IMG/VR virus record: IMGVR_UViG_3300020470_001965
From: a virus
DNA: 64,000 nt
Direction: 5' to 3' (one strand)
A program made the position numbers and the translations under genes. The notes under the pieces were generated by a model. The model did not search any database, was not told the DNA's origin, and was given only the letters and a program-made list of their open reading frames with translations. This document shows, one piece after another, positions 17,412 to 58,900 of this stretch (position 1 is the first letter of the stretch; the number at the start of each line of letters is the position of its first letter).

Positions 17412-17419
17412 ATACTAAC

Positions 17420-19521: not shown

Positions 19522-20958
19522 ATGAAGGTTGTTATTGTTGGTGGCGGTAGTGCTGGATGGATGTCCGCATGTACCCTCATTAAAGCATTTCCTGATTGGG
19601 ATATTACTCTCTACGAGTCTCCCAATGTACCATCTGTTGGGGTAGGAGAATCTACAACACAATTCTTTAGACTGTGGACTCACTTCCTTGGATTAAAGGA
19701 TTCGGAGTGGATGCCGTCTTGTGATGCCACGTATAAGTGTAGTGTAAGGTTCCACAATTTTCACAAACAAAACGACACGCCTTGGCAGTATCCATTTGGA
19801 TTGCCAAGGCAATCTATTTGCAACCCAGATGAGTGGTTATATTATAGTTCCAAGCAAGGATGGGGTAGAGATAAATTTGCTAGGGACTATTGGTTATCAG
19901 CAGAAGCAATTCACAACAATAAAATACCAGTCGGTCACGTTGGATTTGATTTCAATCGTGAGACTGGTTTTCATTTTGATGCTGTTAAGTTTGCTCATTG
20001 GTTGAGAGATAATTATGCTAAACCAAGAGGTGTTAAGCATAAGGTAGAGCATGTTAATAAATTTAACATGGAGTCTGCTGACCTATACTTTGACTGCACT
20101 GGATTTAGGTCACTATTAAATAATTCACTGTGGGTAGATTATAGTCATTACCTACCAAATAATAGAGCATGGGTAACTAGACTACCATACACTGATAAGA
20201 AGACACAGATTAAAGCAGTAACAGATTGCACTGCATTGTCCTCTGGATGGGTCTGGAACGTCCCAACATGGGATAGAATAGGTACAGGATATAATTTCTG
20301 TAGTAAGTATATTTCAGAGCAGGATGCACTCAATGAGTTCAAAGAATACTTGGGTGTAGACCATGACGATTTCAGGATGATCAGTTATAATACAGGTCGT
20401 AGAAGTGAAATCTGGAATGGTAATGTCATTAGTATCGGATTGTCTGGTGGTTTCATTGAACCATTGGAATCCAATGGTCTATTATCTGTACATGAGTTTC
20501 TATTAAACTTTGTCAGAGTCATGGATACGAGGACACATGTCACTCAATTCATGAGAGATACATTTAATAATCATTGTAACTTTAGTTTCGATGGTTTCTC
20601 ATCATTCGTAGGACTACACTATGCATTGACACAGAGAGATGACTCACCATACTGGAAGGCAGTTAGTGAGATTAGATATCCATTGAAGCAGGGTTTACAT
20701 TATAATATGTTCCAGAATTGTCAGATAACATTCATGGAAGAGTCACACAACCTTGAGAGTAAAATCAACTGGGCATTTGGTGATTCACTATGGTGTGTCA
20801 TGGCAGGTCATGGATGGAATCCATTTACTCAACCTATTTACAATACTATTGCTATGTGGGATACTGAACCACCTGACTATTCTGTACCACCTTGGGAGGG
20901 TATAGATAGTTTACCAACACCTTATGAATATTATATGAGAGGGATGTATGCAAGTTGA
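19522..20958 (+). CDS. Flavin-dependent (tryptophan) halogenase, PrnA-like, copy 1
   Basis: GGGSAG FAD motif, GVGEST, DATYK (catalytic Lys position), DCTGF, GWVWNVP, GFIEPLESNG. Confidence 0.9.
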   Translation: MKVVIVGGGSAGWMSACTLIKAFPDWDITLYESPNVPSVGVGESTTQFFRLWTHFLGLKDSEWMPSCDATYKCSVRFHNFHKQNDTPWQYPFGLPRQSICNPDEWLYYSSKQGWGRDKFARDYWLSAEAIHNNKIPVGHVGFDFNRETGFHFDAVKFAHWLRDNYAKPRGVKHKVEHVNKFNMESADLYFDCTGFRSLLNNSLWVDYSHYLPNNRAWVTRLPYTDKKTQIKAVTDCTALSSGWVWNVPTWDRIGTGYNFCSKYISEQDALNEFKEYLGVDHDDFRMISYNTGRRSEIWNGNVISIGLSGGFIEPLESNGLLSVHEFLLNFVRVMDTRTHVTQFMRDTFNNHCNFSFDGFSSFVGLHYALTQRDDSPYWKAVSEIRYPLKQGLHYNMFQNCQITFMEESHNLESKINWAFGDSLWCVMAGHGWNPFTQPIYNTIAMWDTEPPDYSVPPWEGIDSLPTPYEYYMRGMYAS

Positions 20959-22549
20959 ATCTATTACTATTGTCGGTGGTGGATCATCAGGATGGATGAC
21001 AGCAGCACTGTTATCTAAAGTATTCCCAGACATGCAGATTGCTCTGATAGAATCAGAGAAAGTTAAGAGGATAGGTGTAGGTGAGTCAACACTAGGACAT
21101 TTCAACAGGTTCCTTCGTAGGTTGGACCTTAATGATAAGGACTGGATGCCTAAGTGTAATGCCACCTATAAGACATCTATTGCATTTAAGAATTGGAGAG
21201 ATGGTAGGAATGAGAGGTTCCAATATCCATTTGGTAACTTTGATTTGTTCAATGACTATAAAGGGACACCAGTAACATTCTTTGAGTTACAGTCTGTCTA
21301 TGGTGATAAATTATATCCTAATGATGAGTTTGCAAGGTATGTTAATCATCAGACATTCTTAGCAGAGAATTGTAGGTTACCTATGCCTGATGAGCAGAAT
21401 AATAGGAAGGTAGGTAATTTTGTATTTGATGATGACACAGCATATCATTTTGATGCTGACCTATTTGGTGAGTATCTCAGAGATGAGATAGCACTACCTA
21501 ATGGTGTGGTACACATCAAGGGTGATGTTGAGCAGGTAATGAAGAGACCTGATGGTTCTATATCAGCAGTAGTAACACAAGAAGGTGCAGCAGTACAATC
21601 TGATTTGTATGTTGATTGCACAGGGTTTAAATCTCTATTACTTGAGCAGCACATGGGTGTGCCGTTTAAATCATTTAAAGATAAACTATTTAATGACAGA
21701 GCAATAGCAACACAGATAGATTATACTGATATCAATAGTCAGTTACAGAACTATACTGACTGTGTAGCACATGATAATGGTTGGTGTTGGAATATACCAT
21801 TGTGGAATAGAGTTGGTGCTGGTTATGTATACTCTAGTGACTATCTTGATGACCAGCAAGCACTGCTAGAATTCAAGAGATATTTAAGTGACCGTTATTC
21901 GCCTGAAAATGTCCAGAAATGCCAGTTCAAACCCATTAAGATGAGGCATGGTAAGCATGAGAAGGCATGGTGTAAGAATGTTATTGGTATTGGTCTAGCA
22001 TATGGTTTCTTAGAACCATTAGAGTCTACTGGATTGATGACCACACATGAGTCTGCTATACTATTAGCAGATGGATTAGCAAGGAGACATGGATTTATAT
22101 CAAAGGTTGATATAGATACATTTAATTTCGTGACAAATAATATGATGGAGGCAATGAAGAATTTCATTGTTATGCACTATACATTGTCACAACGTACCGA
22201 TACAAAGTATTGGAGAGATTGTCTTGATGTTGAAATGGATGACGGTGGACATCTATGTGAATCTGATAGAATAGCAATGAAACTGGTCTGGGCAATCCTA
22301 GATAGTCTTGACGGTGGAGCATTCCAGAATTCTGGATACACTGGACAGATGTATATTGCTGCTGGTATGGGTTGGAGACCTATTACTGAGGGATTATATA
22401 AAGAACGTGCCTCATTCTCTGGTAGTTCTAATCATCCAGATTTAGATGAGTGTCACGATATGTGGCAGAAAGATAAGAAGAGTATTATGGAGTGGGTCAA
22501 CAGACAACCAACGCATTATGAATATCTTAAAAAATATATTTACAACTAA
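20948..22549 (+). CDS. Flavin-dependent (tryptophan) halogenase, PrnA-like, copy 2
   Basis: GGGSSG, GVGEST, NATYK, DCTGF, GWCWNIP, GFLEPLESTG. Confidence 0.9.
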   Translation: MQVESITIVGGGSSGWMTAALLSKVFPDMQIALIESEKVKRIGVGESTLGHFNRFLRRLDLNDKDWMPKCNATYKTSIAFKNWRDGRNERFQYPFGNFDLFNDYKGTPVTFFELQSVYGDKLYPNDEFARYVNHQTFLAENCRLPMPDEQNNRKVGNFVFDDDTAYHFDADLFGEYLRDEIALPNGVVHIKGDVEQVMKRPDGSISAVVTQEGAAVQSDLYVDCTGFKSLLLEQHMGVPFKSFKDKLFNDRAIATQIDYTDINSQLQNYTDCVAHDNGWCWNIPLWNRVGAGYVYSSDYLDDQQALLEFKRYLSDRYSPENVQKCQFKPIKMRHGKHEKAWCKNVIGIGLAYGFLEPLESTGLMTTHESAILLADGLARRHGFISKVDIDTFNFVTNNMMEAMKNFIVMHYTLSQRTDTKYWRDCLDVEMDDGGHLCESDRIAMKLVWAILDSLDGGAFQNSGYTGQMYIAAGMGWRPITEGLYKERASFSGSSNHPDLDECHDMWQKDKKSIMEWVNRQPTHYEYLKKYIYN

Positions 22550-34762: not shown

Positions 34763-34958
34763 ATTCAGTTGTCGCATCGTTTGTGATGATGACGATGGCA
34801 TAAATGCTTATCATTTATGTGAAGAAATCCAGGCATATTTGAATTCTAATCATCACTTATATGATGAAGATTCTGACGAATATGCTAATGCTAAGGTCAC
34901 AGGATATAAGGTCTTAATTGATAACTATGTCCCTTTCATTGCACAAGATGAGTATTAA
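34749..34958 (+). CDS. hypothetical protein
   Basis: 69 aa, SD AGGAGG upstream. Confidence 0.65.
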   Translation: MKQIEFSCRIVCDDDDGINAYHLCEEIQAYLNSNHHLYDEDSDEYANAKVTGYKVLIDNYVPFIAQDEY

Positions 34959-36192
34959 ACTAAGACCACATCAATCACGTGCTTTGTTATCAATGAAGCA
35001 CCACAATAAAGGTCAAATTGTTGTACCTACTGGTGGTGGTAAAACATTCATTATGATACAAGATCTCATCGCAAATTGTGATGAAGGTGATGATCAAGTG
35101 AATGTAATTGTGGCACCTCGTATTCTATTAGCACAGCAATTATGTGATGATTTTAGATCATTTACTGATGAAATCATCAACCCTTCATTAAACATATTGC
35201 ATGTGCATTCTGGTAGAACACCACATAAATCAACAACAAAATGTGATGAGATAATATCATTTATTGATGAAAATCCATTCAATAAAATGATATTCACCAC
35301 ATATCATAGTTTACATCGAATCGTTGAATCTGGTATCAAAATTGATACAATCTATTTCGATGAAGCACACAACAGCACTGCAAGATCATTCTTTGAAAGT
35401 GTTAGTAAGGTGAGTGAATATGCATCACGTTGTTATTACTTTACAGCAACACCTAGAGTGAGTTATAAACATGAAAGAGGTATGAATAATGCTGAGGTTT
35501 ATGGTACTATTATTGAAAATGTGCCTGCACCTGAGTTAATTAAGGGTGGAAGTATTCTACCACCTACAATCGTACCTTTTGAGCATGATGTACATTATAG
35601 CAAAGAAAATGCACACGTGCATCACTCTGAAACTGTGCAATCTATTCTTGATAGTATAGATGAAACACACGATGCAAAAGTGTTAGTTAGTGTCCCAAGT
35701 TCTAGGGTATTAAATAACATGCTTGGTCGTACATTATTACTCAAAGAGTTAGGAACTCGTGGGTATGATGTATTACATATTACCTCTAAATTTGGTGCTT
35801 ATGTCAACAAAACAAAAGTTAATCGCACGAAGTTCTTTGAAACTCTCAAAGAATGGGGGCAAGAAAGTAACAAGAAATTCGTTATCTTTCATTACTCGAT
35901 CTTATCGGAAGGTATCAATGTTAGTGGACTCACTCATACAATCTTCTTGCGAAATCTTAATGTCATCGAGATGGCACAATCTATCGGTCGTGTTATTAGA
36001 CTTGATAAATCAGATTCCAAGAATATTCAGGCAGGCAATATTCCTGCTGGCGTTGTTAGTTTGTATCGCAAATCCACTGGTTATTGTGTTGTACCTGTTC
36101 ACAAAGATTATGGCACAAAGTGTATTAAAAGATTGAATCGCATTACTAATGATATATTTGTAGAGGGGACGCACACCCATGCGGTGTGCTAG
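34948..36192 (+). CDS. Superfamily 2 (DEAH/ResIII-like) helicase
   Basis: LRPHQ, PTGGGKT (Walker A), FDEAH, TATP, LSEGI, QSIGRVIR. Confidence 0.9.
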   Translation: MSIKLRPHQSRALLSMKHHNKGQIVVPTGGGKTFIMIQDLIANCDEGDDQVNVIVAPRILLAQQLCDDFRSFTDEIINPSLNILHVHSGRTPHKSTTKCDEIISFIDENPFNKMIFTTYHSLHRIVESGIKIDTIYFDEAHNSTARSFFESVSKVSEYASRCYYFTATPRVSYKHERGMNNAEVYGTIIENVPAPELIKGGSILPPTIVPFEHDVHYSKENAHVHHSETVQSILDSIDETHDAKVLVSVPSSRVLNNMLGRTLLLKELGTRGYDVLHITSKFGAYVNKTKVNRTKFFETLKEWGQESNKKFVIFHYSILSEGINVSGLTHTIFLRNLNVIEMAQSIGRVIRLDKSDSKNIQAGNIPAGVVSLYRKSTGYCVVPVHKDYGTKCIKRLNRITNDIFVEGTHTHAVC

Positions 36193-36246
36193 TCCGCAAA
36201 GTGTCCACTAAATGCGGACAACGTGCGGAAATGCCCTATAATACAT

Positions 36247-36288
36247 GTATGAGAAACAAACCTAGTCACTCACTGGGTTTTGTTTCTC
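36247..36288 (+). repeat. 42-nt 5' hairpin repeat, copy 2
   Basis: GTATGAGAAACAAACCTAGTCACTCACTGGGTTTTGTTTCTC, just after the -10 TATAAT (36237-36242). Confidence 0.9.
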
Positions 36289-36312
36289 CCACCCTTTACC
36301 CCACTGACTCAA

Positions 36313-36636
36313 ATGCGTAAAATCGAATCTGAAATGAATTCAGCAATTCGCCAGCGTCGCAACTGGAGCAAAGCAAACACTTCAGTCACAGTAACGGATC
36401 GAGTGGTAAATGTTCATCTACACGGCAACCTAATTGCACGTATTGGTGATACATTCATTCAAATCTTTGACGGTGGTTGGCAATCAGTCACCACAAAATC
36501 AAGACTAAATGCTATTTTGGATGAGGTAAGTTATGGTGCTGGTGTATTCCAACAAAACTGGAATTGGTATCTAAATGATAACAAGTTCGGCACAGTTCCT
36601 TTCTTCTCAGGCATTGAAGTTTCAGCAGATAGTTAA
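36313..36636 (+). CDS. conserved cyanophage early protein
   Basis: MRKIESEMNSAI...WSKANT...HLHGNLIA...GGWQSVTTKSRLNA. Confidence 0.75.
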   Translation: MRKIESEMNSAIRQRRNWSKANTSVTVTDRVVNVHLHGNLIARIGDTFIQIFDGGWQSVTTKSRLNAILDEVSYGAGVFQQNWNWYLNDNKFGTVPFFSGIEVSADS

Positions 36637-36702
36637 CAACTATCACGACCTGATTATGTCGCTAAACTAATCATTTTTCATGTCAAATTGCATCCACTAA
36701 TT

Positions 36703-36819
36703 ATGTCACAGTCTTACAATGTTGCCTCTGTTCGTTATCTAACTGAAGACCTCAGTAAGTGTCAATCAGGCAACGAATTACTCAGAGTTATTGATGCTTG
36801 GATAGCAAACAATAACTAA
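36703..36819 (+). CDS. hypothetical protein, 38 aa (not in track)
   Basis: MSQSYNVASVRYL...GNELLRVIDAW. Confidence 0.5.
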   Translation: MSQSYNVASVRYLTEDLSKCQSGNELLRVIDAWIANNN

Positions 36820-36826
36820 CATTTAT

Positions 36827-36852
36827 GGGGGTGCAATCACACCCCCTATTTT
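36827..36852 (+). terminator. Terminator-like hairpin
   Basis: GGGGGTG-CAATCA-CACCCCC followed by TATTTT. Confidence 0.6.
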
Positions 36853-36872
36853 AATACTTTGCGAGCATAATC

Positions 36873-37061
36873 ATGTCTTTTTCAGTTGCACTCAGTCCAG
36901 CACACTTTCAGGCACTTAAGAATCATTTAGTGGACGAATATGGTTATATGTCAGCATATCTAAATAATCTTACTATTCATCAAGTATGCGAAGAAATTAG
37001 GAATAGAGATGATATTGATTTTATCAAATTACTTGACCAAACTAATCCTTTAATCCCCTAA
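36873..37061 (+). CDS. hypothetical protein
   Basis: 62 aa. Confidence 0.55.
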   Translation: MSFSVALSPAHFQALKNHLVDEYGYMSAYLNNLTIHQVCEEIRNRDDIDFIKLLDQTNPLIP

Positions 37062-37069
37062 ATCTCCAC

Positions 37070-37228
37070 ATGCAAATTAACACAAACTCAATCAAAGATA
37101 CAGTCCACGGTGACACATTGCAACGGATCTATCATTCAGTTACTAACAATCAACCAACTCAAATCATCCGTCCGCAAAGTGTGTACAATCCACCCAGATC
37201 ACGCAACTTGAGTATACTTAATGACTAA
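37070..37228 (+). CDS. hypothetical protein, 52 aa (not in track)
   Basis: MQINTNSIKDTVHG...; contains a copy of the early-promoter motif. Confidence 0.4.
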   Translation: MQINTNSIKDTVHGDTLQRIYHSVTNNQPTQIIRPQSVYNPPRSRNLSILND

Positions 37229-37277
37229 TACATAGTTTACACAGTATTACACAGTACGCGCTAATTTTTTCCACATC

Positions 37278-37916
37278 ATGTCAACAACTGACCCACTATC
37301 TGACACACTAAGTGACAAGATCCAACATGAAACTTATGGTCTATTTCCTATACCTGTCACCAAGTATTCTGTCCCAAATCATTCACATTTAAAAGAGCAA
37401 ATCTTATTGTGGATGAATGAATCTAAAATACTAGAAAAGCATGGGAGAGAAGCAATTTGCCACAATGTTGCCCAGATAGGTAATAACAATGAGGTTGTAA
37501 ATGCAATTCCTGAGTTATATCGTACAATCATAGATGCAGTCGAGAAACATAACAATAACAGCATCAAATATAAGTCTAAGTTCTCAATTAATGATAGTTA
37601 CCTTGAGTTAGCATCAGAAGGGGCAATTTACGCACCCCACGAAGTTAGTAACTGTCTCTACAGTTTGTGTTACTTTATCAACTACAATCCTGCCGACCAT
37701 TCTTTTATGAAATGGAGACGCAATATAAGTTCTAATCATTACCCCATAATTCAAATCGATTCTTTAGAACTTACACCCTACAATATGACAGAAGCAACAT
37801 TTGAAATTAGTGAAGGAGATATTGTTATTTTTCCCTCTAATCTTACGCATGGTTATGATACTAACCCTAAGAATGAGAGAATAACACTTACTGCCAATAT
37901 TACACCATCTAATTAA
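37278..37916 (+). CDS. 2OG-Fe(II) oxygenase-like (TIGR02466 type, atypical HEV motif)
   Basis: LFPIPV, YAPHEVSNC, EGDIVIFPSNLTHG, RITLTAN. Confidence 0.8.
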   Translation: MSTTDPLSDTLSDKIQHETYGLFPIPVTKYSVPNHSHLKEQILLWMNESKILEKHGREAICHNVAQIGNNNEVVNAIPELYRTIIDAVEKHNNNSIKYKSKFSINDSYLELASEGAIYAPHEVSNCLYSLCYFINYNPADHSFMKWRRNISSNHYPIIQIDSLELTPYNMTEATFEISEGDIVIFPSNLTHGYDTNPKNERITLTANITPSN

Positions 37917-37923
37917 CAATGAG

Positions 37924-37968
37924 TTTTCCACACAGTTATTCACACTTTTCCACAGTAATTGTTGAAAA
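37924..37968. promoter_or_regulatory. Cluster of DnaA-box-like 9-mers (candidate origin / DnaA-binding locus)
   Basis: TTTTCCACA 37924-37932, TTATTCACA 37936-37944, TTTTCCACA 37946-37954, inverted TTTTCAACA 37960-37968. Confidence 0.6.
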
Positions 37969-38052
37969 CAGTGTATATTTTAAATGTCGAAATAAATGTA
38001 GTTGTGTGATATTTAATTCGAGTTAAATGCAGCGGAGTTGTTGTTATCTAAG

Positions 38053-38081
38053 AGCGTAACACATCGCCAGATTTTTGTCAA
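38053..38081 (-). promoter_or_regulatory. Minus-strand sigma70-type promoter TTGACA-N17-TACGCT (extended -10)
   Basis: Plus strand TGTCAA 38076-38081 and AGCGTA 38053-38058; points left at the DnaA-box cluster with no convincing minus-strand gene. Confidence 0.55.
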
Positions 38082-38100
38082 CAACTCACAGACATATTAC

Positions 38101-38146
38101 AAAGTGTCCACTATCACTTGACTTTGCCCAATTTTTCCACTATTAT
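38101..38146 (+). promoter_or_regulatory. Early promoter AAAGTGTCCAC...TTGACT-N17-TATTAT
   Basis: Motif 38101-38111, -35 at 38118, -10 at 38141. Confidence 0.7.
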
Positions 38147-38168
38147 ACATCTATCGCAACTAATTCCA

Positions 38169-38357
38169 ATGGGAAGGACTTACAAACGAAATGACCCCTA
38201 TTCATCACATAGGGCGAAAAGTTTGAGAGAAAAGCGTAAACAATCGAGAAGCAAATCTCGAAGCGTTGATGATACTTTTTCCACAGATTATGCGGATAAG
38301 TATCACAAACCCCGCACACAGTTTGATTCACATACGGAGGACAATCGTCATGGATGA
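38169..38357 (+). CDS. small basic hypothetical protein
   Basis: MGRTYKRNDPYSSHRAKSLREKRKQSR..., downstream of the promoter. Confidence 0.65.
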   Translation: MGRTYKRNDPYSSHRAKSLREKRKQSRSKSRSVDDTFSTDYADKYHKPRTQFDSHTEDNRHG

Positions 38358-38488
38358 GACTAACTACAACCCACTCGAATCTGACTGGGTTGATGATATG
38401 TTATACGAGGACGATTACTCCACTGATTGTGAAGAATTGCCCACAGATTAACCCCCCATTCTTTGCCCTTTCTTGCCCCTTATTTGCC

Positions 38489-38662
38489 ATGACCAAAGTA
38501 ACAACAATTCAATCACAATTTCCCTCAGTAGATGTTAAATTGTGGGAAAGAGGTAAGCGATACTTTTGGGCGTATAATTACGATGGATGTAATAAGAATG
38601 GACCGTTTAAATCTGAGAAGTTAGCATTAGCGGACGCACAACGATTAACGGAGGGAAACTAA
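38489..38662 (+). CDS. hypothetical protein
   Basis: MTKVTTIQSQFPSVDVKLW...YFWAY...GPFKSE..A..DA. Confidence 0.6.
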   Translation: MTKVTTIQSQFPSVDVKLWERGKRYFWAYNYDGCNKNGPFKSEKLALADAQRLTEGN

Positions 38663-38850
38663 TGTCAATTCCAACCAAATTCGCAGCAATTCTTGATAAT
38701 TATGATAAAGGATTACTGGGGATAAATGATACAATCGAAATGGCACAGTTGTTGATAGATACGGGGTTAAATGAGACCCTGCTACAGTATCAACAATTAT
38801 GTGATTATTACATCGCTGAGGGTTTATGTTATGATGTGCAATATGAGTGA
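38662..38850 (+). CDS. hypothetical protein
   Basis: 62 aa, ...AQLLIDTGL...CDYYIAEGLC. Confidence 0.65.
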   Translation: MSIPTKFAAILDNYDKGLLGINDTIEMAQLLIDTGLNETLLQYQQLCDYYIAEGLCYDVQYE

Positions 38851-39015
38851 TTAAGTATTAAATAGTATACACACAGTTAGTAACACATATGGGCAGTGAT
38901 TTGCCGTCCATTTGTGTTACTTAGCGTCCCGTTATATTAAAAACATCCCTATCGCTAACCTACAAAAGTATCACAGCGATAGAAAAATATTTCTCAGTAA
39001 AAAAATTTCCCAGGT

Positions 39016-44817: not shown

Positions 44818-46896
44818 ATGGCAGCAATACCATCACAATTAACGTCGTTAGACTTCTTTGAAATCAAAGAATCCATCAGATCATATCTAAGGACTCGAAA
44901 AGAGTTTACTGATTATGATTTTGAGGGATCTTCTGCCAGCTATTTGATTGATATTCTTGCGTATAACACATATTATACTGCTTTCAACGCTAATATGGCG
45001 TTAAATGAAGCTTTTCTTGAGACAGCAACCGTTAGAGATAACATTGTAAGGATTGCAAAGCAGTTAAACTATACACCTAGGTCAATAAAAGCACCTAGAG
45101 CATGTCTAAAAATCATTGCACAGACTACAACTTCATTAAATGGCACAACTTTCCCTGAATATGCGACTTTACAGAAGGGAGATGTCTTTGTAGCAGAGAA
45201 TGATACAGACGATTTTACATTTACAGTAACAAATGACATCAAAGTACCTGTTAATACTACTACAGGACTAGCAACATTCGATAATGTACTGGTTTATCAA
45301 GGTAATTTGATGCAATTCCACTATACAGTGGACTATACTAAGAAACAAGACTTCATTATACCCTCTGAAAATGTTGATACTGGTCTTTTGACTGTTGATA
45401 TCAGTCCAAATGCCCAATCTTCAGAGATTGATACCTATAATTTGGTATCAAATGCTACAGCATTGAATTCTACTTCCAGAATTTACTATTTGGAAGAGAC
45501 AGATGACCTCAGATACCGTCTTTTATTCGGAGATGGGGTATTAGGACGTAAATTGATTGATGGAGAATACATTACAATCAATTATGTGACCACTTATGGT
45601 GTTGATGCTAACGGATGTCGCAATTTTGACTACATTGGTAACATAATTGACTCTGATGGTAGGGTAATATCACCTGGAGCAATCTCCATAGAGACAAAGG
45701 ATGCCTCACAGGACGGCGAAGAGCGTGAAACAGGTCTATCCGTCAAGTTTAGAGCACCTAGAGCGTATGCAACCCAAAATAGGGCAGTTACAGAGTCCGA
45801 TTATGAGCATATTGTCTCGGAAATCTATCCTCAGGCAGCATCAGTGACTGCTTATGGTGGTGAGAAGTTATCTCCACCCATTTATGGTAAGGTTTACGTC
45901 GCAATTCGACCAAAAACAGGAAATAAACTAAACGCTAGCACCAAACAGAAGATTAAAAACGATTTGAAGAAGTATTCGGTTGCTTCTATCGAGCCAGTCA
46001 TCATTGACCCAACAAGTTTCTACATTATTCCGAAATCTTACGTTTACTATAACGGTGGAGAGACTAATTTGACTGGTGCTCAACTTGGTACTAAGGTTTT
46101 ACAAGCAATTGATGAATTTAACACTAATGGACAGAATAATAGGTTTGGTAATCGTTTAGATGGGTCTAAATTTGGCTCTATGATTGATAATGCTGATACT
46201 AGCATTTCTGGTAACGTTACTCAACTCACATTAGGTCAAAATCTTGACCAATTTACGTTTGGAAACGTATTTACTCAATGTTTGGACTTTGGAAACCCAT
46301 TATTCGACCCTTCAGACCTAGCAGGCAACAAAGATGGTGATGCATGTGCTCCATCATTCTCTGTAGTCAAATCTGGGACATTTTATGCCACAGGATACAC
46401 TGAGGATCTTGTGAATTTGACATTAGCGGATGGAACTACCGATGCTTCGGTATCAACTCCCACTATATCAACCAATTCTGCAAATACAGTGTTAGTTGCA
46501 GTAAATATTAGAGATGATGGTAAAGGAAACTTGATTTTGGTTACTAAGAGAGATGAGACTGAGGTAATCCTCAATCCAGCTGTCGGTACCGTTGATTATG
46601 GAAGTGGAAAAGTCTGTGTAGGACCTATAGCAATACAAGGTACTCCTGATGGCACCACAAGACTTCCGATACAGGCATATCCAGCAGGTGGATCACTTGT
46701 AGTTCCTCCTGGTGTTGACCCAACAATCTTTAACCCCGTAGTCAATCCAATTGACTATACAATCAACGATGTTTCAATCCCCAACTTCGATCCTAACAAC
46801 TTTAGTGGTTATAATTATGGTAACGTAGGGGGTATAAATATCATTGATTATCCAACAGATACATTCACGTATCCAGTCAGCGAATCTTGTTTCTAA
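44818..46896 (+). CDS. gp6: Baseplate wedge subunit gp6
   Basis: LDFFEIKESI..YL....FTDYDFEGS....LIDILAYNTYY; FGDGVLG; QNRAVT..DY; YGKVY. Confidence 0.95.
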   Translation: MAAIPSQLTSLDFFEIKESIRSYLRTRKEFTDYDFEGSSASYLIDILAYNTYYTAFNANMALNEAFLETATVRDNIVRIAKQLNYTPRSIKAPRACLKIIAQTTTSLNGTTFPEYATLQKGDVFVAENDTDDFTFTVTNDIKVPVNTTTGLATFDNVLVYQGNLMQFHYTVDYTKKQDFIIPSENVDTGLLTVDISPNAQSSEIDTYNLVSNATALNSTSRIYYLEETDDLRYRLLFGDGVLGRKLIDGEYITINYVTTYGVDANGCRNFDYIGNIIDSDGRVISPGAISIETKDASQDGEERETGLSVKFRAPRAYATQNRAVTESDYEHIVSEIYPQAASVTAYGGEKLSPPIYGKVYVAIRPKTGNKLNASTKQKIKNDLKKYSVASIEPVIIDPTSFYIIPKSYVYYNGGETNLTGAQLGTKVLQAIDEFNTNGQNNRFGNRLDGSKFGSMIDNADTSISGNVTQLTLGQNLDQFTFGNVFTQCLDFGNPLFDPSDLAGNKDGDACAPSFSVVKSGTFYATGYTEDLVNLTLADGTTDASVSTPTISTNSANTVLVAVNIRDDGKGNLILVTKRDETEVILNPAVGTVDYGSGKVCVGPIAIQGTPDGTTRLPIQAYPAGGSLVVPPGVDPTIFNPVVNPIDYTINDVSIPNFDPNNFSGYNYGNVGGINIIDYPTDTFTYPVSESCF

Positions 46897-46901
46897 GATA
46901 G

Positions 46902-49900
46902 ATGCCTACGAAGAATATTAACGTCTCGGATAGGGTAGAATATCAACTACCCGATTTTATTCGGCAGGAAGACAGACAATTAGTCAATTTCTTGTTTGAG
47001 TACTATAAGTCTCAAGAGAAGACGGGTAGACCGTATGATATCCTAAACAACCTTTTAGGATACTTAGATCTTGACCAATATAGCTCAACAGAGTTGTCTA
47101 GTAGTACTCTGTTGCTGAAGGATATTGGTGTTTATGATAAGAAGATAGAAATTGAGTCAATTGATGGATTCCAGCAGAAGAATGGATCCATAATGATTGA
47201 CAATGAGGTCATCTACTACGAGGATGTGACTCGTGGTCCTGATGTCATCATTACTCCAGGTATTTCGTTTGAACAGTTTAATAAGAAGAAGCAACAGTTA
47301 GAAAATCCATTCCAACTGTTTGATGGCGTAGAAACAATATTCCCATTATCATTTTTAGGCACTCCAGTTGCCCCACCTTCTGCTGAACACCTCATTGTAA
47401 TCACTTACAATGAAATGAAGGTTCCTGGAGTTGACTATTTCATTGAAGGTACAAATATCCGTTTCCAGGAACCTCCTAGAATGAGGACTGGTGCTGATGA
47501 CTCAGAATTTACTCAACTTACATATCTAATTGGTTATTCTGACCAAGATATCATTACGACCGATGCGATTCCGTTTGAAGAATGGCAGAATACTAAAAAC
47601 TACCCGCTAAGAGTAAACACACAACCATATACTCCAACATCAGAGATTGGTCTTGTAATTAAGAAGAATAATCGTCTTCAAGTCCCATATACTGATTTCA
47701 CAGTATTCCAAGATAGGGTTGTCTTCAAGAATCCTATTGGTGCTGCTGATAATATCCATATTCGCTCTGTAGAGTATATTGCACCCGCATATGGTTCAGG
47801 TGCTACTGCAATCGCTTCTGTGGACGACGCAGGACAGATTCAAGCACTCATTCCTAAGAAGGGTGGTAGCAAATATAGACTAGATTTCAATCCTAAGGTA
47901 ACTATCCTCTCAACTAGCGGTGGTGGATCTACTGCTAGGTCTCTTATTGGTGGTATTAAGGATGTTACCCTAATTGACGGTGGTCAAGGTTATAGTTCCT
48001 ATAATCCACCTGTTCCTGTTTGTGCTCCTCCGACGAATACCTTCGGAACACCTGCAAAACTGGCACTAACCGTTGATGACACCACTGGAAAGATTGATAC
48101 TGTAACTATTACCAATAGTGGTAGTGGTTATGACTTCATTCCTGCTATTTCCTTCCAAAATCCAGGTGGTGCTACTATTAGTGCTCCTACTATTGATGGT
48201 GAGGGAAGAGTTAACATTGGATCTATCTCTGTATTGACGATGGGTCTGAATTACAGCAATCCACCAACTGTTTACATTGATCCAGCACCTGATGACGGTA
48301 TCAATGCTCAAGCAATATCAAAAATTAACCAAGATGGTCAAGTATACGAGATTAACATAGTTAATCGTGGTAAAGGTTATACTTCCGTCCCTAGAGTCCA
48401 AATTATTGACCCAATTGGTGCTCAGGTGCTTGACGTAACAGTTGCATCTGGTTCAGTTACCAATATTGAGATGTTAACAGGTGGTCAAGGTTATACTGAC
48501 GCTCCATCTGTCTATATTGTTGATGATCGTAAGGATTCCTACGGTGTACCAATCGGAGGCACGGGTGCAACTGCTGCTGCCACGATTTTCAACGGAGAAA
48601 TCACTGATATCAACATTACTAACTTTGGTACTGGATATTCGACTGAATTCCCACCTAAAATCTACATTGCTGAGCCTCAGAAGGCACGTGCATCAGTAGA
48701 TGTAGGATTTGACGAAGTTACTGGTTTTGACATCTTAGAAGAGGGTATAGGATACTCTCCTAGCGCATTCCTAGAGTGCTCCAGGGGCGTTTCTGGACCT
48801 GTTGCTTACGATAACCTTCATAATGAGATATATGCTGGTGAATCTGCTCTGAGGCAGTCAAATCACCTTGCTGGACAAACAGTTATCAATTTAGACTCCT
48901 TATTCATCAAGGAAGTCTTTGATAAGTTCAGAAGACAGTATTTGCCGACTATTGACGTTGATTTTTCGTCAGTTGACCCAATTCAGGTCATTAAAAACAT
49001 TACTGACTTCTATATCAGTAAAGGTACTAAATTAGCGACTCAATATCTCTTCAAAATCCTATTTGGCGAAGATGTTGACCTTTATTATCCAAAAGATGAG
49101 ATTATTAGTCCATCTCACGCTACTTGGGTTGTAGATACAGTTTTAAGGGCAGAATTGATTTCTGGAGACCCTTCAAACCTTATAGATTCGCAAGTTAACC
49201 AATATGCCGATGAAGTAGACCTTAATGTCGCTGCTGCAAGTGCATTAATCGAAAATGTCATCACAATCATAGAAGGAACTGATACAATCTACGAATTGGC
49301 GATTTCTGAAGAAACTTTGGAAGGATCCTTCGTAATTCCTTATAAAACCAAACTTGTAGAGCCATTAACGACTACAGGGCAAATTATTACCGTTGACTCG
49401 ACAATTGGATGGCCTGAGAGAAACGGCACCATCTTAATTGACGATAATGAGACTGTTCAGTATAAAGAGAAGAGTTTAAACCAATTTATCGAATGTACTC
49501 GCTCTAAAAACGGAGTTGTCGAAGATTGGGATCCTGGTACTGTTATTCAGTCGGATATCTTCGTTTATACCAATAAAGGCACTTCTGAAGAGTGTAAATT
49601 AAGAATATTAGGAATTGCTGAAGCAGGAACAACAGTTCTTAACGATACTGGGTCATATTACATAAAAGGCGATAAATTGAAGGTTGCCAACCTTGGATCT
49701 ACTGCTGAAGACCAAAGGTTGTCATCTTGGTTATATAACGTCAAAAAACTGATTCAAGTTACCAGTATTACTCCTGGTGGTGTTAATAACCAAACTGCGA
49801 CTGTAGTTTGCGATAATCCTCATGGATTATTGGTTGAAGACACTGTTACCGTATATGGTGCAAACCCAGTTGTCTATAACGGCACATTTGTCGTTACAGC

Positions 49901-52900
49901 ACGTCTTGACCAATATAGCTTCTCATATGAGATAGCAACCCCTACTGAGATACTTCCTCAAGGTAATATCTTATTATCAGTTGACCTTAACAGAGGTAAG
50001 TCAACTATTGCCTCAATTAATAAGGTCGTTAGTGAATTTACGACTAATATACAAAATGCGTTTTTTAATGATAATTATGTTTATGTTGCTGCTAGTGGCT
50101 TACCCAACTACAAGATTGGTCCTTTCACTGGGTCGGCACTCATCCCAGGAAACCAAAGAAAACTCTTAAGGTTCCCTCGGACAGTACAAACTATTTCAGA
50201 GAGACAAGACGTTTCACCAGGTACCGCAATCGGTTCTTGGATTAACGGTGTTTCTATATGGTCTTATAAGTCAAAAGAATATATTCAATATGGTCCATTA
50301 ACCAATATCAGTGTTGATAACGTTGGTATTGGATATGACGCTGGAGCAAAACCAAACCTAGAAATTACAGGAGGTGGTGGAATAAACGCTGCTGCTGAGG
50401 TAGTAGTTAATGGTGCATTAGAAAGTTTCGATGTAACTGAAGAAGGTAGTGGTTATACTGAGTCACCTTTGGTATCAATCGTTGGTGGCGGTGGTGTAGG
50501 TGCTACTGCACAAGCAGTTATTACTGGTGGTAGAGTAACAAGAATTCTAGTTGAGCAACCAGGCTCAGGTTATACTTCACAACCTAGTGTTTCTATCACA
50601 GGTGGTGGAGGTAGTGGTGCAACTGCAAATGCTAATGTCCGTGGTCCTATTTCTGGCATTACCATTACTAATGCAGGTACTGGATATACTTCACTTCCAG
50701 CTGTTAAGGTTAACTCTGGTGAAGGTGCTTTAGCACAACCAATCGTTATTAACGGTAGAATCGTATCTATCGCTATTATTAACTCTGGTGAGTCCTATAC
50801 GACTGCTCCTAACGTAATCATCAATGGTGATGGATTTGGTGCAATCGCTAAAGCAACTATCGGTCTCACTGGTGAGGATAAAGGGCGTGTATTGGGTGTA
50901 ACCATTACTAACAAGGGTATTGGGTATACACAGGGTATGACGACCGTCAGACTCGAATCAGTGGGTCAATTAGCGACCTTTACACCTACTGTATATCAGT
51001 GGAATAGAAACCTACAATATGACCTTGTTGACAATTATGACATTGCAAGAGGTTATGTCTTTACAGGATATAACAACCAGTTTGGTGGTGAATATGCTCA
51101 CCTATCAGACCCTAAAGAATTAAGATATGTTGTTGGTGATAACGTCTTCTTAGACCCAGTTACTCAACAATTCCAAGAATTAGTAGCTAACTTTAAGCAC
51201 TCTCCAATTATAGGTTGGGCGTTTGATGGTAACCCAATTTATGGTCCTTATGGATATATCGATCCTACTGACCAGAATAGTGGTATCAGAAGGATGCGTA
51301 CATCCTATAAACTTAAATCTAACATCTTGTATGATGAAGCAACTAACCCAAATCCTGCTCGTATAGATGGTCCTGACCTTGAAACTTATCCACCAGGACA
51401 ATTTGTTGCTGACTACTACTATGACTTCCAGTCTGGTGATTTAGACAACTATAATGGACGTTTCTGTAAGACACCTGAGTACCCAGATGGTACCTATGCT
51501 TACTTCATTACAGTTGACTCATCTGATGCTGGTGTCGCTGAATTCCCATACATCATGGGACCACAGTTTAACTCATTACCAGATAACTGGAACTTCTCTC
51601 AAGTAGCAACACAAGAGAATATCCCATCTGGTGTTGTTAGATATAGAGACCCTTATGTTGAGGTTGATATTGACGTTGAGCGTCAACCTAACCAAGAGGC
51701 AGATGTATTAACTACTGAGATTGAAGGATATCCTTTAATCTTTGAAATCCAAGACTCGAATAACGATGGAATAATTGATGCTGATGAGCAGCAAGAAATT
51801 CTGGAGATGTCCGAGGAGGCAACGCTACAGATATATGATTACTTTCCTTCTGTATCAGCAGAATCAAGAGTTGACATCGAAGTTGAAACAACGACCCAAT
51901 TTGAAAACGCTCAAATCGACGGATTCGTAGTTGAGAACCCAGGTGAATCTTATCAGGTAAATGACACCGTATTCTTCGATAATGAAGGTACTGGTGGTTT
52001 TGGTGCATCTGCACTTATTGAATCTGTTAAGGGACAGAAGATAATTGGATACTCTAAGGAGATGATTGGTGACCGTCCTTATGGTCACATCACTACTGAA
52101 ATAGGACATGAGTTACGTCAACAAGACGAAATCATTGTAAATTCTCGTCCTATCATTGATAATACCAGTAAGATATACAGAGTTAAAGTTGTTGCTGGTG
52201 TTGAAAGAATTAATCTAATTCAAGAAGGTACAGGATATGTTGAAGATATCCCACCAACTTTTGAAGTTATAACTCCACAGGGTCAGGATGCTCAACTGGA
52301 GATTATTCGTGAATTGACAGGTCAAGTTAAGACTGTCAATATTATCAACTCTGGTAATGGATATGATGAGGATAATCCTCCTCAAATTAGGGTATCACAT
52401 CCACAGCAATTCAAGAAGACCCGTTATTGGTTATCTGAATATATGGAGGCTGCTGGAGTAATTGATATCCATCATACTGTACAGTCATCTCTGAGATATA
52501 CTTACATTTGTGGTAGTATCACCGAACCTGATGGTGATATGTCAGGTCTTCTTGCTAAGTTTGACGACTTAGGTCAGTTAATCTGGGAAAGGACTCTTAT
52601 ACCTCAGAACGTAGGTCAGAAGAAACTTGAATTCGTCAGGATGCATCTTGATGAGTCTTTAGAAAACGACATGATATATGTCGCAGGTCAGTATTATGAT
52701 CCAAACAACTCTACATTTAATCCAGATGTCTGGATGGCACAGTATGAGTCTGGATTCAATAATGCCAATGCTCCTGACGGTATATTAAAGTGGCAGAAAG
52801 CAATTGCAGGTATATCTGGTAGTACAAGAAGAGACTGGGTAACAAGCATCTGCTTAGACCAAGATAAGAATATCTACCTTGGTGGTTATACTGATAGTAA

Positions 52901-55900
52901 TTCACCAGATCCTAATGATATCTGGATTGTCCAGTGTGATATTGATGGTGACCTTGTAGAGAAGAGAAAGATTGCATCTGCTGATGGATCAGAAGAATTA
53001 TATCAGTTACAGTATATCTCCCAAGATACCTTCATGTTTGTTGGTATCAATAAAGAGAATAATGATGTAATGTATGGTGTATTCTACTATGATGGTGCAA
53101 ACCTAGAAATTAGTTGGATACGTCAAGTCCCTGTTGCTGGTGGATATGTAAGAAACCCACAATTCATCATTGATGAATATGATGATGTTGTCTTGATTTG
53201 GGACATCTATAATAATGGTGCTGCCAAGTATGACAAGATTCAGATTAACAAGTTCCCATTAGCAACTGCTAATACTCAGTGGGAATGGACTAAGACTGTA
53301 ACTGTTTCTGGTAGTCCAGATAGTGTCAGACATGCTGGTATCAGTGTTGATAACTTTGGTAACTATACCCTTGTTACTGATGTCATAGAAAGTCAGAATC
53401 AGCGTTATTCTATCGTTCATTACATGAAGTATGATGGTAGTCTAATTGCTGAGACTAAAGTTGATGATACTGTCAATATTGGTTTCCAAGCAAAAGACCA
53501 TGTTGTTGATAACTCTGGTGATTGCATCCTTACTGTTAATAGGCAGCAATCTGACCAAATGGCAGCATATCGTTTCAACGATGTTCTTGACCTTGACTAT
53601 GACTTCACGAAGCAGAATTTAGCAACATTTAACATCTATTCTCCTTCAGATGCATCAGTTGATACTTCATTCTACAGATTCGGCACTTCAGCACTAAAAC
53701 TAAGTGCAGTTTGCCCAATTAAGCTTTCTGGTTACAATTTATCCAATCCTGAGTTTAGTTTCCAAGGTTGGTTCTCTATGGCGACTGCACAACAGTCTGC
53801 ACAGAATACCAAACCACTATTCTTTGATTTAACTCCCATAACAGGAGATTCCATTCAAGTTGAGCTTGATGGTGATTCAAATAGTGCAAACTTTGAGAAA
53901 TGGGTAATGTATGTTAATAGCGTTGAGGTTGCTACTTCTACCTCTGCTACTAACTGGACTACCTTTGCAGGTGGTGCTTGGTGCCATGTAACCTTCCAGA
54001 AGAGAGAAGAGTCACTTGGTTTATACCGTTATGAGGTATTCATCAATGGTAACCAGCAATTAAGTTATCAGAGCACATCTGATATCAATATGGCAGATAT
54101 GACCATTGCTGGTAAGTATTCTGCTCCTGTATCTGGCACATCCTTTATTGGTTGGATTGATGACCTTGTAGTTGATGATAATGCTCCATATGCTACTGCT
54201 GCATACACTTTACCTACAGATGAGCTTCCAGTAACAACATCTAACTCTGATGTTGCTCTAATTAAGTTTGATAGACTTCATAGTAGAAGAGATTCATATA
54301 CTGCTACAGGTCTAACAAAATATACAGACTTTGCCTTTACTGATGCTTCAGTACAGACTACATGGGTTGCCCTCGCTGCTGGTGCTATAACACTTTGGGA
54401 AACAGGTCCAGGTGGTCTTCAGATATTGGATATGTCTCAGGCACCTTCTACTTACATTCCTGGTACATATACACTAACTGAAAATAATTATGAGTATGCA
54501 ACCAAGACTTCTACGATTCCATCACCTGCTGGTAAGAAATTATTGATTACTGCTGATGTAATCAGTAAGTTCTACATGCGTGATGCTCTATATCAGAAGA
54601 TTGATAATGTAATGGAGTTTACCTTCAGTCAGGATATTAAACTGACTAAGGGTGCTATCTTAGAACAATTCAATGACGCTGGTGTAACTCAGGCATATGG
54701 TACTATTGTTAAAGTGCCTGAAGGCACACTTCTTAACCCTGGTTACGGCACTAAGTACCAGGTTGGTAAGATTTTTGGTACTTTCAATAACACTGATCGT
54801 TACAGGACTACTGCTAATGATGTCAACCAAATAACTGGCACATACTTTGACACAGAAGAGCCAGAAGAGCCTTGGGAAGCAGGTAAGGCATATCTAGCAA
54901 ACGATAAGGTATATTCAGATAAGAAGATTTACCAAGCACAGGGTGCTGGTACATCAGGTAATATTGCACCAACTCATACTGCTGGTGTTGTTAGTGATGG
55001 TGTAATTAACTGGGCATTCATCGATGATGCTGGTAAGTTTACTATTGACTTAACAGAGCATCCTCATCCTAGACCTCAATATCTTGGACTTGATATGCCT
55101 GAGTGGGTAGATGGTCTTCTATATGTTGAAGGACAGCAAGTTTGGCATAAACTCAATGTATATGAAGTAGCAGTAGGTGGTGCTGGTGTTGCAGGTACAA
55201 CTCCTCCTACACATACTACTGGTAGTGCTTCAGATGGTGGTGTAACTTGGGATTATAAGTCAACCAGTGAAGCAATTGGAACCTATGCTAGAAACATGGG
55301 TTATGACCAAGGTAACAACTATTCAGTCCAGATTGTAGAGATTCATCCTGGATCAACATTCATTCCAGAAGACGTTGTAAGTCTTAATGCAGATAACATT
55401 ACTGTTGCTGAAGATGAGAAGAGTGTTGTTGTCTCTGGATTCGCTTCTGTTAAGAAGATTCGTGTTACTGCAAGATTAGAGAAAGACTTAATAAGGACTG
55501 GTGAGGTTAGGACTAAGTATGTCTATGCCACATCAAATAGTGCTCATGGATTTGCAGCAGGTGATATTCTATTCACTGAAGGATTCCAAGGTATTCAATT
55601 CAATGGTAGTTTCTTTGTAGACCAAGTAATTGGTACTAGAGAGTATACATTTGGTATTAGGGATACTGCTGTAAGTGATCCAACATTCAATAACAATGCG
55701 ATTAATAATGTCAACATATATGCCAAGCACCCAACATTAGAATTTACTAGAAATCATCAGTATGTCTTTGACATATCTGATACTTCAAACTTTGGTTATT
55801 ACCTATCCTTCTCTCAGGATAACCAGTATAAACTGGAATACTCATTTAACAATATCACTAGGTCTGGTACTCCTGGAGTTCCTCTTGGTGGTGGTAGCTA

Positions 55901-58900
55901 TCCATTTGTTAAATTCTCAGTATTAGGTGATGTAACTAATATCTCATACTACTTTGACCCATCTAGGGTTGGTGCTAATTCACCTGTTGGTGATAATTCA
56001 TTCATTGATGTTATTACTACTCCTTATCAGGGTACATTTAAGATATCAGAAGTCATTGGTGACTATGAGTTTAAATTCCCTCTACTTAAGGAACCAGAAA
56101 GACAGAATGCTGAGATAATTAATGACGAGTTTGATAATCCATATTCTTACTATTCAACTACTTCTACAAGAGCAGTTGGACCTATAAACAGCATTAAGTT
56201 AGTTGCTGCTGGTGGATTCTATCAGAAACTACCAATCATTAGTGATATAGCATCCTTCAGACAGATTGAGAAGTGTGTTATAACCTCTGGAGGTACTGAA
56301 TATGCTCCAGGTGTCTATTATGACGTTCCTATTGATGGAGATGGTGAAGGTGCTAAATGTACTATTACTGTTGAAGTTGATGATGAAGTTGGGTCAGGCA
56401 CACTGACTGATGTTGCTGTAACCGACCCAGGTAAAGGATATACTATTGCATCTATTGATATTGATGCAATACCAGGAATACTTGGTAGTCAGTTAGCAGG
56501 ATCTGGTGGTACTGTTGATGTTATCATTCCTGATGAAGGTAGCGGTGCTTCTGTCTTCTTAACAGGTACTAATATTGGTAAGATTAAGAGACTGAAGAAT
56601 AATGAGTTTGGTTTCGGTTATTCTCACGATTATACCCTGAAACCTGAAATTACCTTCCCAGTTAACCTTCAGTTATTCAATACTTCAATACTTTCCGAAA
56701 TTAAGATAACTGACCCAGGTGCTGGCTATACTTCAACTCCTGCTGTCGTAATCGAAGGTGGTGGAGGTAGTGGAGCAGAAGCAGAGGCAGTTATTAAGAA
56801 TAACCGTCTAAACGAGATTATTATTAAAAACCCAGGCGCAGGATACTCATCTGAGCCTACAGTAACTTTAAAGTCTGAATTTAACTATGTTGTTAACTTA
56901 GACCTTAATTATCTTCAATTTAACTTCCCACATGGTATTACAACTGGTGCTGAAATTACATTCCGTGCAGATAACGTAGGAAGCACAGTTGGTGAATTAC
57001 CTAAGCCATCTACCGCAGGTTTGACAAGTTTGGTAGAAGGACAGGTTTATTATGCTATTGCTGGTGAAGCAGCTGGTTTAGAGTCTGACCAAATCAGATT
57101 TGGTTTAACTTTACAATCTGCACAGGCAGGTGATTATATTACCTTCCTGACCCAAGGTAGTGGTCGTCAGACACTTCTAACTGAGGTATTCGGTGGTAAA
57201 GCAACTGCTGTTGTAGAAACCTCCAGATTCCTCGAAGGAGAGCAAGTATTCCAAGGATCTGCGATAGAAACACAAACTGCAATTGGTACTGTATCTACAA
57301 ACACTGGTTGGCAGATTGGACCTAAGATTCTTAAGATTGTTGATTATACTGGTGATTGGATTGCTGGAGAGAAAGTAACAGGTGTTATTTCTAAAGCATC
57401 AGGTCTTATTGATAACCTGAGCATTGCTCGTGGTGTATTAAATATTGGCTCCCTAACGAAGACACCAGGCCGATTTATTGATGACGTTGGTAAGCCTTCT
57501 GAGATTGTCCAGAAGATACAGGATAGTTTCTTCTATCAGAACTTCTCATACGTTATTCAGTCACAGACTCCTATCACAGAGTGGAAGACTCAAGTATTAG
57601 AGAATAACCACCCTGCTGGTTTCAATATGTTTGGTCAGTTACAACTGACTGGTGGTAAGGACGTATCTGGTCGTAAGATTGGTACTGAGTTTACTAAGCA
57701 GGTAAACATCAACAACTACAGTAATGTTAACCAGATAACCTCATTTGGTGCAGCACAACCAATATACACTGATTATAACAATACTGAGGTTCTTTTCCGT
57801 AAGAAGCGTTTGACATCTTCTGAGGAAATTCTAACTTCTATTGTTAAGAAACTGGATGATATTTCACCACAGTTTAATGGTATAGACAAGCAATTCCCAA
57901 TTACTGTTGAGGGTGAGCAAGTTATTGTCCAACAGAATCAGTTGATGATTACACTTAACGGTGTTATTCAGTCTCCTGGTGAATCTTATCAGGTTGTTGG
58001 TCCTAACTTAGTATTCTCTGAACCACCTAAACCAGCATCTAAAGTTAACTATAGAATCTTAGGAGTTACTCCTACACCTATCTACAGAATTGCACTTTAC
58101 ACTTCTGGTGGTGGCACTAACTTTGGTATCTTCCCAACAATGGGACAGCAAGTCCAAGGTGTATTCTCAGATGCTGTTGCAACTGTTATAGATTCTGGAT
58201 TAGCACATATTGATGTTATTAACGTAACTGGTGGTACTTTCCAACTCAATGAAGAGATTGTAAGAGGTGAAATCTTCTCTGCTCTTATCGAATCTGTCGA
58301 ATTGGTTAATACTGAAACTATCTTTGAGTTTGGTGAGACTATTACTAACCTTGAAGGTGATACTGCTATTATTGAAGAAACTAACGTTGTTGACGGTGTT
58401 GTTAATGACCGTTTAGTTGTTTCTAAGACTTCAGGTACTGCTAAGTTTGAAACTGGTATATTTGACCTTAAACTCAACGAATACGTCTATTCTGCCTCAT
58501 CTAAGATTGCAGGACAGATTACATTCATTTCTCCATACATTGACCCAATAACAAGTGAAGTTGTTGACGAATTAATCATCAACAGAGGGTCTACATTCTT
58601 CGGATTGCTATTTGAGCGTCTTGTAAGTTTGGAGAATCCTAATGTCATCCTAGACGACATTTCACAATCTTCTATTACTCCTACTGAGCTTTATAACCCA
58701 GATGAGCGTATTAACGCTGATTTCCTTGATTTTGAAGAAGTAAGGACTACAGAAATCACTTATACCAATCTTGCCAATGGTACGATTGAAGTTGGTGATA
58801 GAATCGTTTCTAAGGACGTAGATTACGGAAACCCAGTTTCTACCTTCCACGGTATTGCTGCAAACCGATTCTTAGACGCAAAACGCAACGTTGCTAATAA

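Follow-up and report, generated by a model that had tools for sequence, protein, structure and literature searches.

Sequence comparison indicates that positions 37920 to 38300, approximately, of the DNA analysed here form a single control module, some 400 bases long and mostly gene-free, which T4-like cyanophages conserve in one copy and in which two clusters of cyanobacterial-type DnaA boxes bracket a conserved AT-rich block and two predicted, back-to-back sigma70-type promoters. The DNA, a stretch of 64,000 nt from IMG/VR record IMGVR_UViG_3300020470_001965 (hereafter the window), comes from a T4-like cyanomyovirus (Kyanoviridae) that is widespread in marine metagenomes (at least 11 studies) and whose nearest isolates are P-RSM6, S-SZBM1, S-WAM1 and P-TIM40. 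To our knowledge, the origins of T4-like cyanophages have never been mapped, and we regard this module as the best candidate either for that replication start or for a switch that responds to the replication state of the host.

All called genes lie on the + strand of the window, which starts with gp5 and continues with transaldolase, tail fibres, halogenases and many 2OG-Fe(II) oxygenases and methyltransferases. These are followed by UvsW (34918-36192), a Kyano_Gp96 protein (36280-36636) and a 2OG-Fe(II) oxygenase (37278-37916) that ends directly before a 252-bp gap at 37917-38168. Beyond the gap stand a gene for a small basic protein (38169-38357; 62 aa, N-terminus MGRTYKRN, phrog_3226), a series of small ORFs and the baseplate block, with a 1193-aa protein at 40088, PAAR, gp25 at 44403 and gp6 at 44818. 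The small gene can be taken to code for protein, because its first codons vary synonymously among relatives. Elsewhere in the window we note at least seven 2OG-Fe(II) oxygenase paralogues scattered over 4-38 kb, three tail-fibre-assembly-like paralogues in tandem, each of 269-270 aa, a tandem pair of tryptophan-halogenase-like genes (16602-19038, 19522-22549), and, after gp6, a single frame (46902-63998) that stays open for more than 5,699 aa, runs off the window and would encode a giant putative structural protein.

With the small gene as a marker, 141 IMG/VR stretches were gathered which, together with the window, S-WAM1 and P-TIM40, gave 63 distinct upstream regions; since the gene and not the boxes served as the marker, the sample is unbiased as to boxes. 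Throughout these regions, and whichever gene stands upstream, a single non-coding module is conserved over the 300 nt that precede the small gene, and in the clade of the window's relatives that carry phrog_3226 this gene always follows the module. At the head of the module are direct boxes, one to three in number, with an inverted one; these are succeeded by the AT-rich block, conserved in sequence, and by a variable stretch in which many relatives hold a true late promoter. Next come a minus-strand TTGACA, 17 nt (often with TG) and TAnnnT, and, about 40-55 nt beyond this block, a rightward TTGACA-17-TATAAT promoter and the start codon.

The left cluster of boxes (37924..37968, both strands) comprises three direct boxes on the + strand, namely perfect copies of TTTTCCACA at 37924-32 and 37946-54 with TTATTCACA at 37936-44 between them, and one inverted box, TGTTGAAAA, at 37960-68, which has one mismatch to the consensus and makes a convergent pair with box 37946-54 across a 5-nt spacer. 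Every box and every TAAATG motif (37981, 37993 and 38024) listed in the initial annotation was recovered at its place. The 9-mer TTTTCCACA is the DnaA box of cyanobacteria, a site that serves in oriC and to which DnaA domain IV binds in vitro, as shown for the Cyanothece oriC (PMC4674748), and its assignment here as a host-type box holds well: it matches the published box, lies far above background, and is conserved and phased at about 11 or 21-22 bp. The comparison with shuffled background, which the initial annotation had proposed for TTWTNCACA, gave a divided answer, in that the loose consensus is not in excess over the window (12 against 9.8 expected), whereas the exact cyanobacterial box occurs four times in 64 kb (37267, 37924, 37946 and 38277) against 0.85 expected, a count equalled or surpassed in one of 100 shuffles. 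All four exact copies are confined to 37267-38285, and chance would place three consensus boxes within 45 bp about 1.4e-4 times per window. Conservation in relatives, the other check proposed, is nearly complete: of 63 distinct homologous modules, 62 contain one or more perfect boxes, 115 in all against 0.24 expected. Several host-consensus 9-mers above chance, in the window with four exact copies gathered in 1 kb, are what a DnaA-binding locus should present.

The variation among these boxes is itself informative. One-mismatch variants mostly change T3 to A, towards the general DnaA consensus, or else affect the first two T's, and the core TCCACA is nearly invariant. Among the modules compared, direct boxes are spaced by 11-12 or 21-22 bp and the spacers of convergent boxes run from 5 to 48 nt; this combination of variable spacers and 11/22-bp phasing is more easily reconciled with monomers that bind independently along one helical face, as DnaA does, than with an operator for a dimer of fixed geometry. 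The outlying boxes of the initial annotation fared unequally. That at 38277 is conserved and is discussed below. The perfect box at 37267..37275 (+) is solitary, stands just 5' of the 2OG-Fe(II) oxygenase start codon, has only four perfect counterparts at the equivalent distance in 46 loci, and probably falls outside the module. The box-like 9-mer TTTTCCACT at 38133-41 was not seen in the relatives inspected.

The right cluster (38277..38299, both strands) lies inside the small gene, and its conservation goes beyond what had been annotated. In it a perfect box (38277-85, +) faces, across 5 nt, an inverted box with one mismatch (38291-99), and this convergent arrangement mirrors the left pair (37946-37968), 331 bp away. 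In 46 loci, 39 perfect boxes fall at +100 to +199 from the start of the small gene, with a pile-up at +99 to +125, and every other 100-bp bin, the left cluster aside, holds at most four. Among relatives the intragenic box faces either way and occupies three reading frames, and it encodes FST, VFHK, YVEK/SVEN/HVEN or LWKT, residues that are missing from the small proteins encoded without a box (P-TIM40, S-WAM1). The use of both orientations and of three frames implies that selection acts on the DNA, and we regard the intragenic cluster as a conserved element under DNA-level selection. Across relatives the two clusters are 307-375 bp apart, without strict helical phasing, and both promoters lie between them.

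Beside the left boxes is the AT-rich block (37970..38014, both strands; consensus about TTTAAATG..TTAAATAAAYATA), a candidate unwinding element of the AT-rich kind to be expected next to such boxes. The stretch with TAAATG motifs had been noticed before for its composition; the 63-sequence alignment, in which it has high information content, indicates in addition that it is a block conserved in sequence, and the 40-mer from 37974 ranks in the bottom 0.7% of the window's 40-mers for stability. As a late promoter of the window the block was considered and rejected: it has AATAAATG about 175 nt upstream, whereas the true late promoters NATAAATA, all of them on the + strand of the window phage, stand 26-35 nt before start codons.

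Two promoters are predicted to the right of this block. The leftward one, P_left (38046..38081, minus strand), has its -35 TTGACA at 38081-38076, a 17-nt spacer with TG at 38061-38060, its -10 TACGCT at 38058-38053 and an expected start near 38046. It is present as an exact TTGACA-17/18-TAnnnT in 53 of 63 modules, with the 17-nt spacer in 46 of these; only the middle of the -10 varies (TACGCT, TACACT, TACGGT, TACAGT and others), with TA...T kept throughout and the TG extension found in 35 of the 53. P_left points toward the AT block, 45-70 nt downstream, and the left boxes, at 80-120 nt, and no gene follows it. It escaped a single-sequence promoter scan because its -10 matches the consensus at only three of six positions, and we infer from the alignment that it is a conserved putative promoter on a gene-less strand, an element absent from the initial annotation. 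The contigs of two metatranscriptome runs cover the flanking genes and not 37917-38168, which has no bearing either way on a leftward transcript. The rightward promoter, P_right (38118..38146, plus strand), is a predicted early promoter of the small gene, with TTGACT, 17 nt (the spacer that holds TTTTCCACT) and TATTAT, which match the consensus at 10 of 12 positions; it is an exact TTGACA-17-TAnnnT in 39 of 63 relatives and recurs in Syn9 and Syn19. We also note that two loci (L172 and L180) have a perfect DnaA box in place of the P_left -35, about 119 nt before the small gene, and that a few base changes lead from TTTTTGTCAAC to TTTTTCCACAA.

The module extends well beyond the small-gene clade. 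When 60 IMG/VR modules were made into a profile that omitted the window, S-WAM1 and P-TIM40, it gave exactly one strong match in each of five genomes: at 37908-38180 in the window (E 9e-46), 48559-48829 in S-WAM1 (E 2e-43), 1016-732 in S-SZBM1 (E 5e-41), 52545-52777 in Syn9 (E 1e-22) and 50626-50823 in Syn19 (E 4e-19). By this measure it is single-copy and common to at least four genera. Among isolated phages, neither blastn with positions 37000-39000 nor tblastn with the small protein returned a match, and a different copy of the module matched S-SZBM1 and S-WAM1 only. Box clusters in syntenic position ahead of gp25/gp6 or other baseplate genes, which the initial annotation had suggested seeking in other cyanomyoviruses, do exist, 1.3-2 kb before the baseplate genes. 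A tight cluster is found once per genome in S-WAM1, S-SZBM1, Syn9, S-PM2, S-SM2, S-SM1 and Syn19, and genome-wide scans found none in the Synechococcus-phage genomes S-RSM4, S-SSM7 and Bellamy or in P-TIM40, P-RSM6, P-SSM2, P-SSM4, P-HM1, P-RSM4 and MED4-213. Of the Synechococcus-phage genomes checked, 7 of 10 hence have a tight cluster, against 1 of 8 from Prochlorococcus phages (Fisher p = 0.025, in a test that ignores kinship and with labels that denote isolation host only). The sole cluster-bearing Prochlorococcus phage of the eight, P-SSM7, has two clusters about 630 bp apart (record 45973-46004 and 46602-46631) in the syntenic place, 0.7-1.3 kb before a baseplate wedge gene. The cluster of S-PM2 (record 19231-19264) lies amid annotated tRNA-Asn/tRNA-Leu genes, away from the usual pre-baseplate place.

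Cyanomyovirus genomes without a tight cluster (three of the ten Synechococcus phages and seven of the eight Prochlorococcus phages) imply that DnaA is not generally required. P-TIM40 keeps both promoters and the AT block and has zero boxes, and the boxes and the leftward promoter are thus separable. In Syn9 and Syn19 the boxes persist, as do the AT block and the rightward promoter, but a counterpart of P_left is doubtful in Syn19 and not evident in Syn9. In Syn9 the annotated ORFs gp86 and gp87 (record 52477-52797) overlie the module, which is non-coding in relatives, and both are probably mis-annotations. A further arrangement was seen at L048:2313-3525, from the lineage of the S-SM2/Bellamy relatives, where a rightward TTGACA-17-TAGAAT promoter, four boxes (a direct series of three, spaced by 21-22 bp, plus an inverted one), an AT block and a GIY-YIG homing-endonuclease-like gene follow one another in this order.

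We tentatively suggest, as a reading that is quite possible and still short of probable, that the module is an early (theta-type) origin fired by transcription in the manner of T4 oriF and oriG, with host DnaA as a helper or gate. Under this proposal, host DnaA would occupy the two box clusters that bracket the AT block and the promoters, and unmodified host RNA polymerase would start at the gene-less P_left and transcribe into the AT block. The RNA would be kept hybridised there as an R-loop and would prime the phage replisome, as at oriF and oriG, and DnaA on the boxes beyond the AT block might hold the DNA open, stall the polymerase and so set the end of the primer, or gate firing by the replication state of the host. 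From an origin of the T4 R-loop type one would expect a conserved promoter without a gene, firing into an AT block that is conserved as well, within a single-copy syntenic module; by sequence, the predicted P_left, exact in 53 of 63 modules, lies 45-70 nt upstream of the block, though it is not evident in Syn9.

The likeness to known origins is partial in each case. T4 oriF (uvsY) and oriG (gene 34) are units of about 100 bp in which a promoter with a sigma70-type -10 is combined with an AT-rich unwinding element and the R-loop transcript primes synthesis; oriE relies on an early promoter, and UvsW later removes R-loops (PMC3016281). For the cyanomyoviruses, which lack MotA and use host-type early promoters, a single theta origin is reported to have been predicted in Syn9 (PMC2984593). 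By its sequence the module resembles oriF and oriG in offering, within about 100 bp, a putative promoter of sigma70-type -10 ahead of an AT-rich element, and oriE in that its predicted early promoter would need no phage factor. It also shares what we take to be the map place of oriF, between uvsW and the baseplate genes. The T4 origins, however, have no DnaA boxes and use MotA-dependent promoters, whereas the cyanophage module has a predicted promoter of plain host type and two flanking box clusters, and its AT block is conserved in sequence as well as in composition. In phage lambda, host DnaA boxes lie downstream of pR, a promoter whose transcription activates ori-lambda, and box-bound DnaA can halt RNA polymerase; lambda nonetheless has its own initiator (the O protein) and iterons, and neither a phage initiator nor iterons were seen for the cyanophage module. 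Cyanobacterial oriC (PMC4674748, PMC8287927) has in common with the module the type of box, several boxes clustered at one- or two-turn phasing and an adjoining AT-rich tract. Unlike oriC, the module has no above-chance run of DnaA-trios, is not beside dnaN/dnaA, and belongs to a virus with its own helicase, loader, primase and polymerase.

The initial annotation had proposed that the phage recruits host DnaA to open its first origin. The host-type boxes and their syntenic clustering speak for a part of this idea, and opening by DnaA itself finds no such backing. Under the criterion of at least three NAN trios within 16 bp of a box (PMC8287927), DnaA-trios beside the proximal box were not enriched in 62 modules, at 53% against 55% in shuffled sequence for the top strand and 24% against 47% for the bottom; the runs in the window are two trios on the top strand and three on the bottom. 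Neither does the genome-wide GC skew switch sign at the module in the complete genomes of Syn9, S-WAM1, Syn19 or S-SZBM1, and P-TIM40, as noted, does without boxes altogether. We did observe a local dip in GC skew just upstream of the module (-0.12 in the window at 36000-38000, -0.12 in S-WAM1 at 45-50 kb and -0.05 in Syn19 at 45-50 kb), with positive values after it.

Docking of DnaA on these boxes is a candidate interaction, and the 9-mers might instead only resemble DnaA boxes and be the target of a phage-encoded protein, for instance the small basic one next door, or of a different host factor. The constant linkage of the small gene with the module in its clade would suit such a reading, as would the fact that some sites are 23-bp palindromes compatible with a dimer. 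Against this, the spread of convergent spacers (5 to 48 nt) and the presence of direct repeats are ill matched to such a protein; Syn9 and Syn19 bear boxes, yet the gene after their module lacks the MGRTYKRN start, and P-TIM40 has the small gene and no boxes. The box is not known to agree with the site of any other cyanobacterial regulator (NtcA, RpaB/HLR1, LexA, PhoB, CRP). Arrays of TTTTCCACA occur moreover in over 118 unrelated viral contigs, GC-rich ones included, and, among the matches listed, in genomes of many bacterial phyla, which argues for a universal binder, DnaA, over a clade-specific phage protein, and we judge binding by another protein to be unlikely. It is extremely improbable that a small coding gene, a structured RNA or chance accounts for the boxes. 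A 35-aa ORF (37919-38026) does run over the boxes and is open in the window and in one relative (L002) with an identical C-terminus; it was rejected as a gene, with many relatives having a stop codon directly before the box and no start codon. RNAalifold on 24 sequences found no conserved structure in the module or in RNA from P_left (0 pairs, with non-compensatory changes in stems), Rfam families gave no match over the whole window, and the surplus of perfect boxes over expectation is far too large.

DnaA acts in bacteria as a transcription factor and as a roadblock, and it stimulates lambda pR from downstream boxes. The module could accordingly be a DnaA-gated transcription switch with no origin role, at which DnaA on both clusters stimulates, blocks or loops out transcription, so that expression of the small basic protein, of the genes downstream and of the leftward RNA would track the level or the ATP/ADP state of host DnaA. 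The clusters bracket both divergent promoters, each about 80-125 nt downstream of one of them, the distance between convergent pairs would suit looping, and P_right and the boxes, but not P_left, are common to Syn9 and Syn19, all of which would be natural in such a switch. On the other hand, that same distance is not helically phased, a roadblock within the small gene would shorten the gene's own mRNA, the gene-less promoter and the sequence-conserved AT block would go unexplained, and single copy with fixed synteny across genera exceeds the needs of an ordinary operator; on balance we hold a pure switch, the main rival of the origin reading, to be possible but less likely than not. The other proposal of the initial annotation, a datA-like sink whose boxes only soak up or inactivate host DnaA and halt host initiation, fits poorly and seems to us very unlikely. 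The E. coli datA is a high-affinity cluster of DnaA boxes outside oriC that needs IHF and acts by DnaA-ATP hydrolysis, and the cyanophage boxes are likewise clustered outside oriC. As perfect boxes they would be high-affinity sites, and the phage copy number presumably rises during infection. Yet a genome has about 5-7 of them, all in one place and never apart from promoters and an AT block, in a single-copy, syntenic cassette whose map position is fixed, where a sink should work independently of promoters and position, many cyanomyoviruses lack them, and phasing and a bipartite layout would be needless.

The origin that we tentatively favour, started by host RNA polymerase and assisted or gated by host DnaA, would set these phages apart from T4, the textbook phage that starts replication without the host initiator. 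A literature search found no publication linking cyanophages or T4-like phages with DnaA boxes; new here are the evidence that the intragenic cluster is under selection as DNA, the single-copy match of the profile across genera and the host-linked distribution. The module also prompts an annotation correction, as Syn9 gp86/gp87 are drawn over an apparently non-coding module. T4-like cyanophages kill a large share of the ocean's picocyanobacteria, and a single-copy, conserved module with sites for host DnaA offers a precise place to test how they begin DNA synthesis. If DnaA does act there, the timing of phage replication would be wired to host physiology. We would go further only with reserve, to a view that is conceivable but in our estimation less likely than not, namely that abundant marine T4-like cyanophages license a single origin with host DnaA and so couple the start of DNA synthesis to the replication, growth or light state of the host, with a dependence commoner in phages isolated on Synechococcus than on Prochlorococcus. 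Were this true, it would bear on the dependence of infection on light, diel cycle and growth rate, on host range between Synechococcus and Prochlorococcus, and on how RNA polymerase and DnaA of the host are shared between the cell and its virus.
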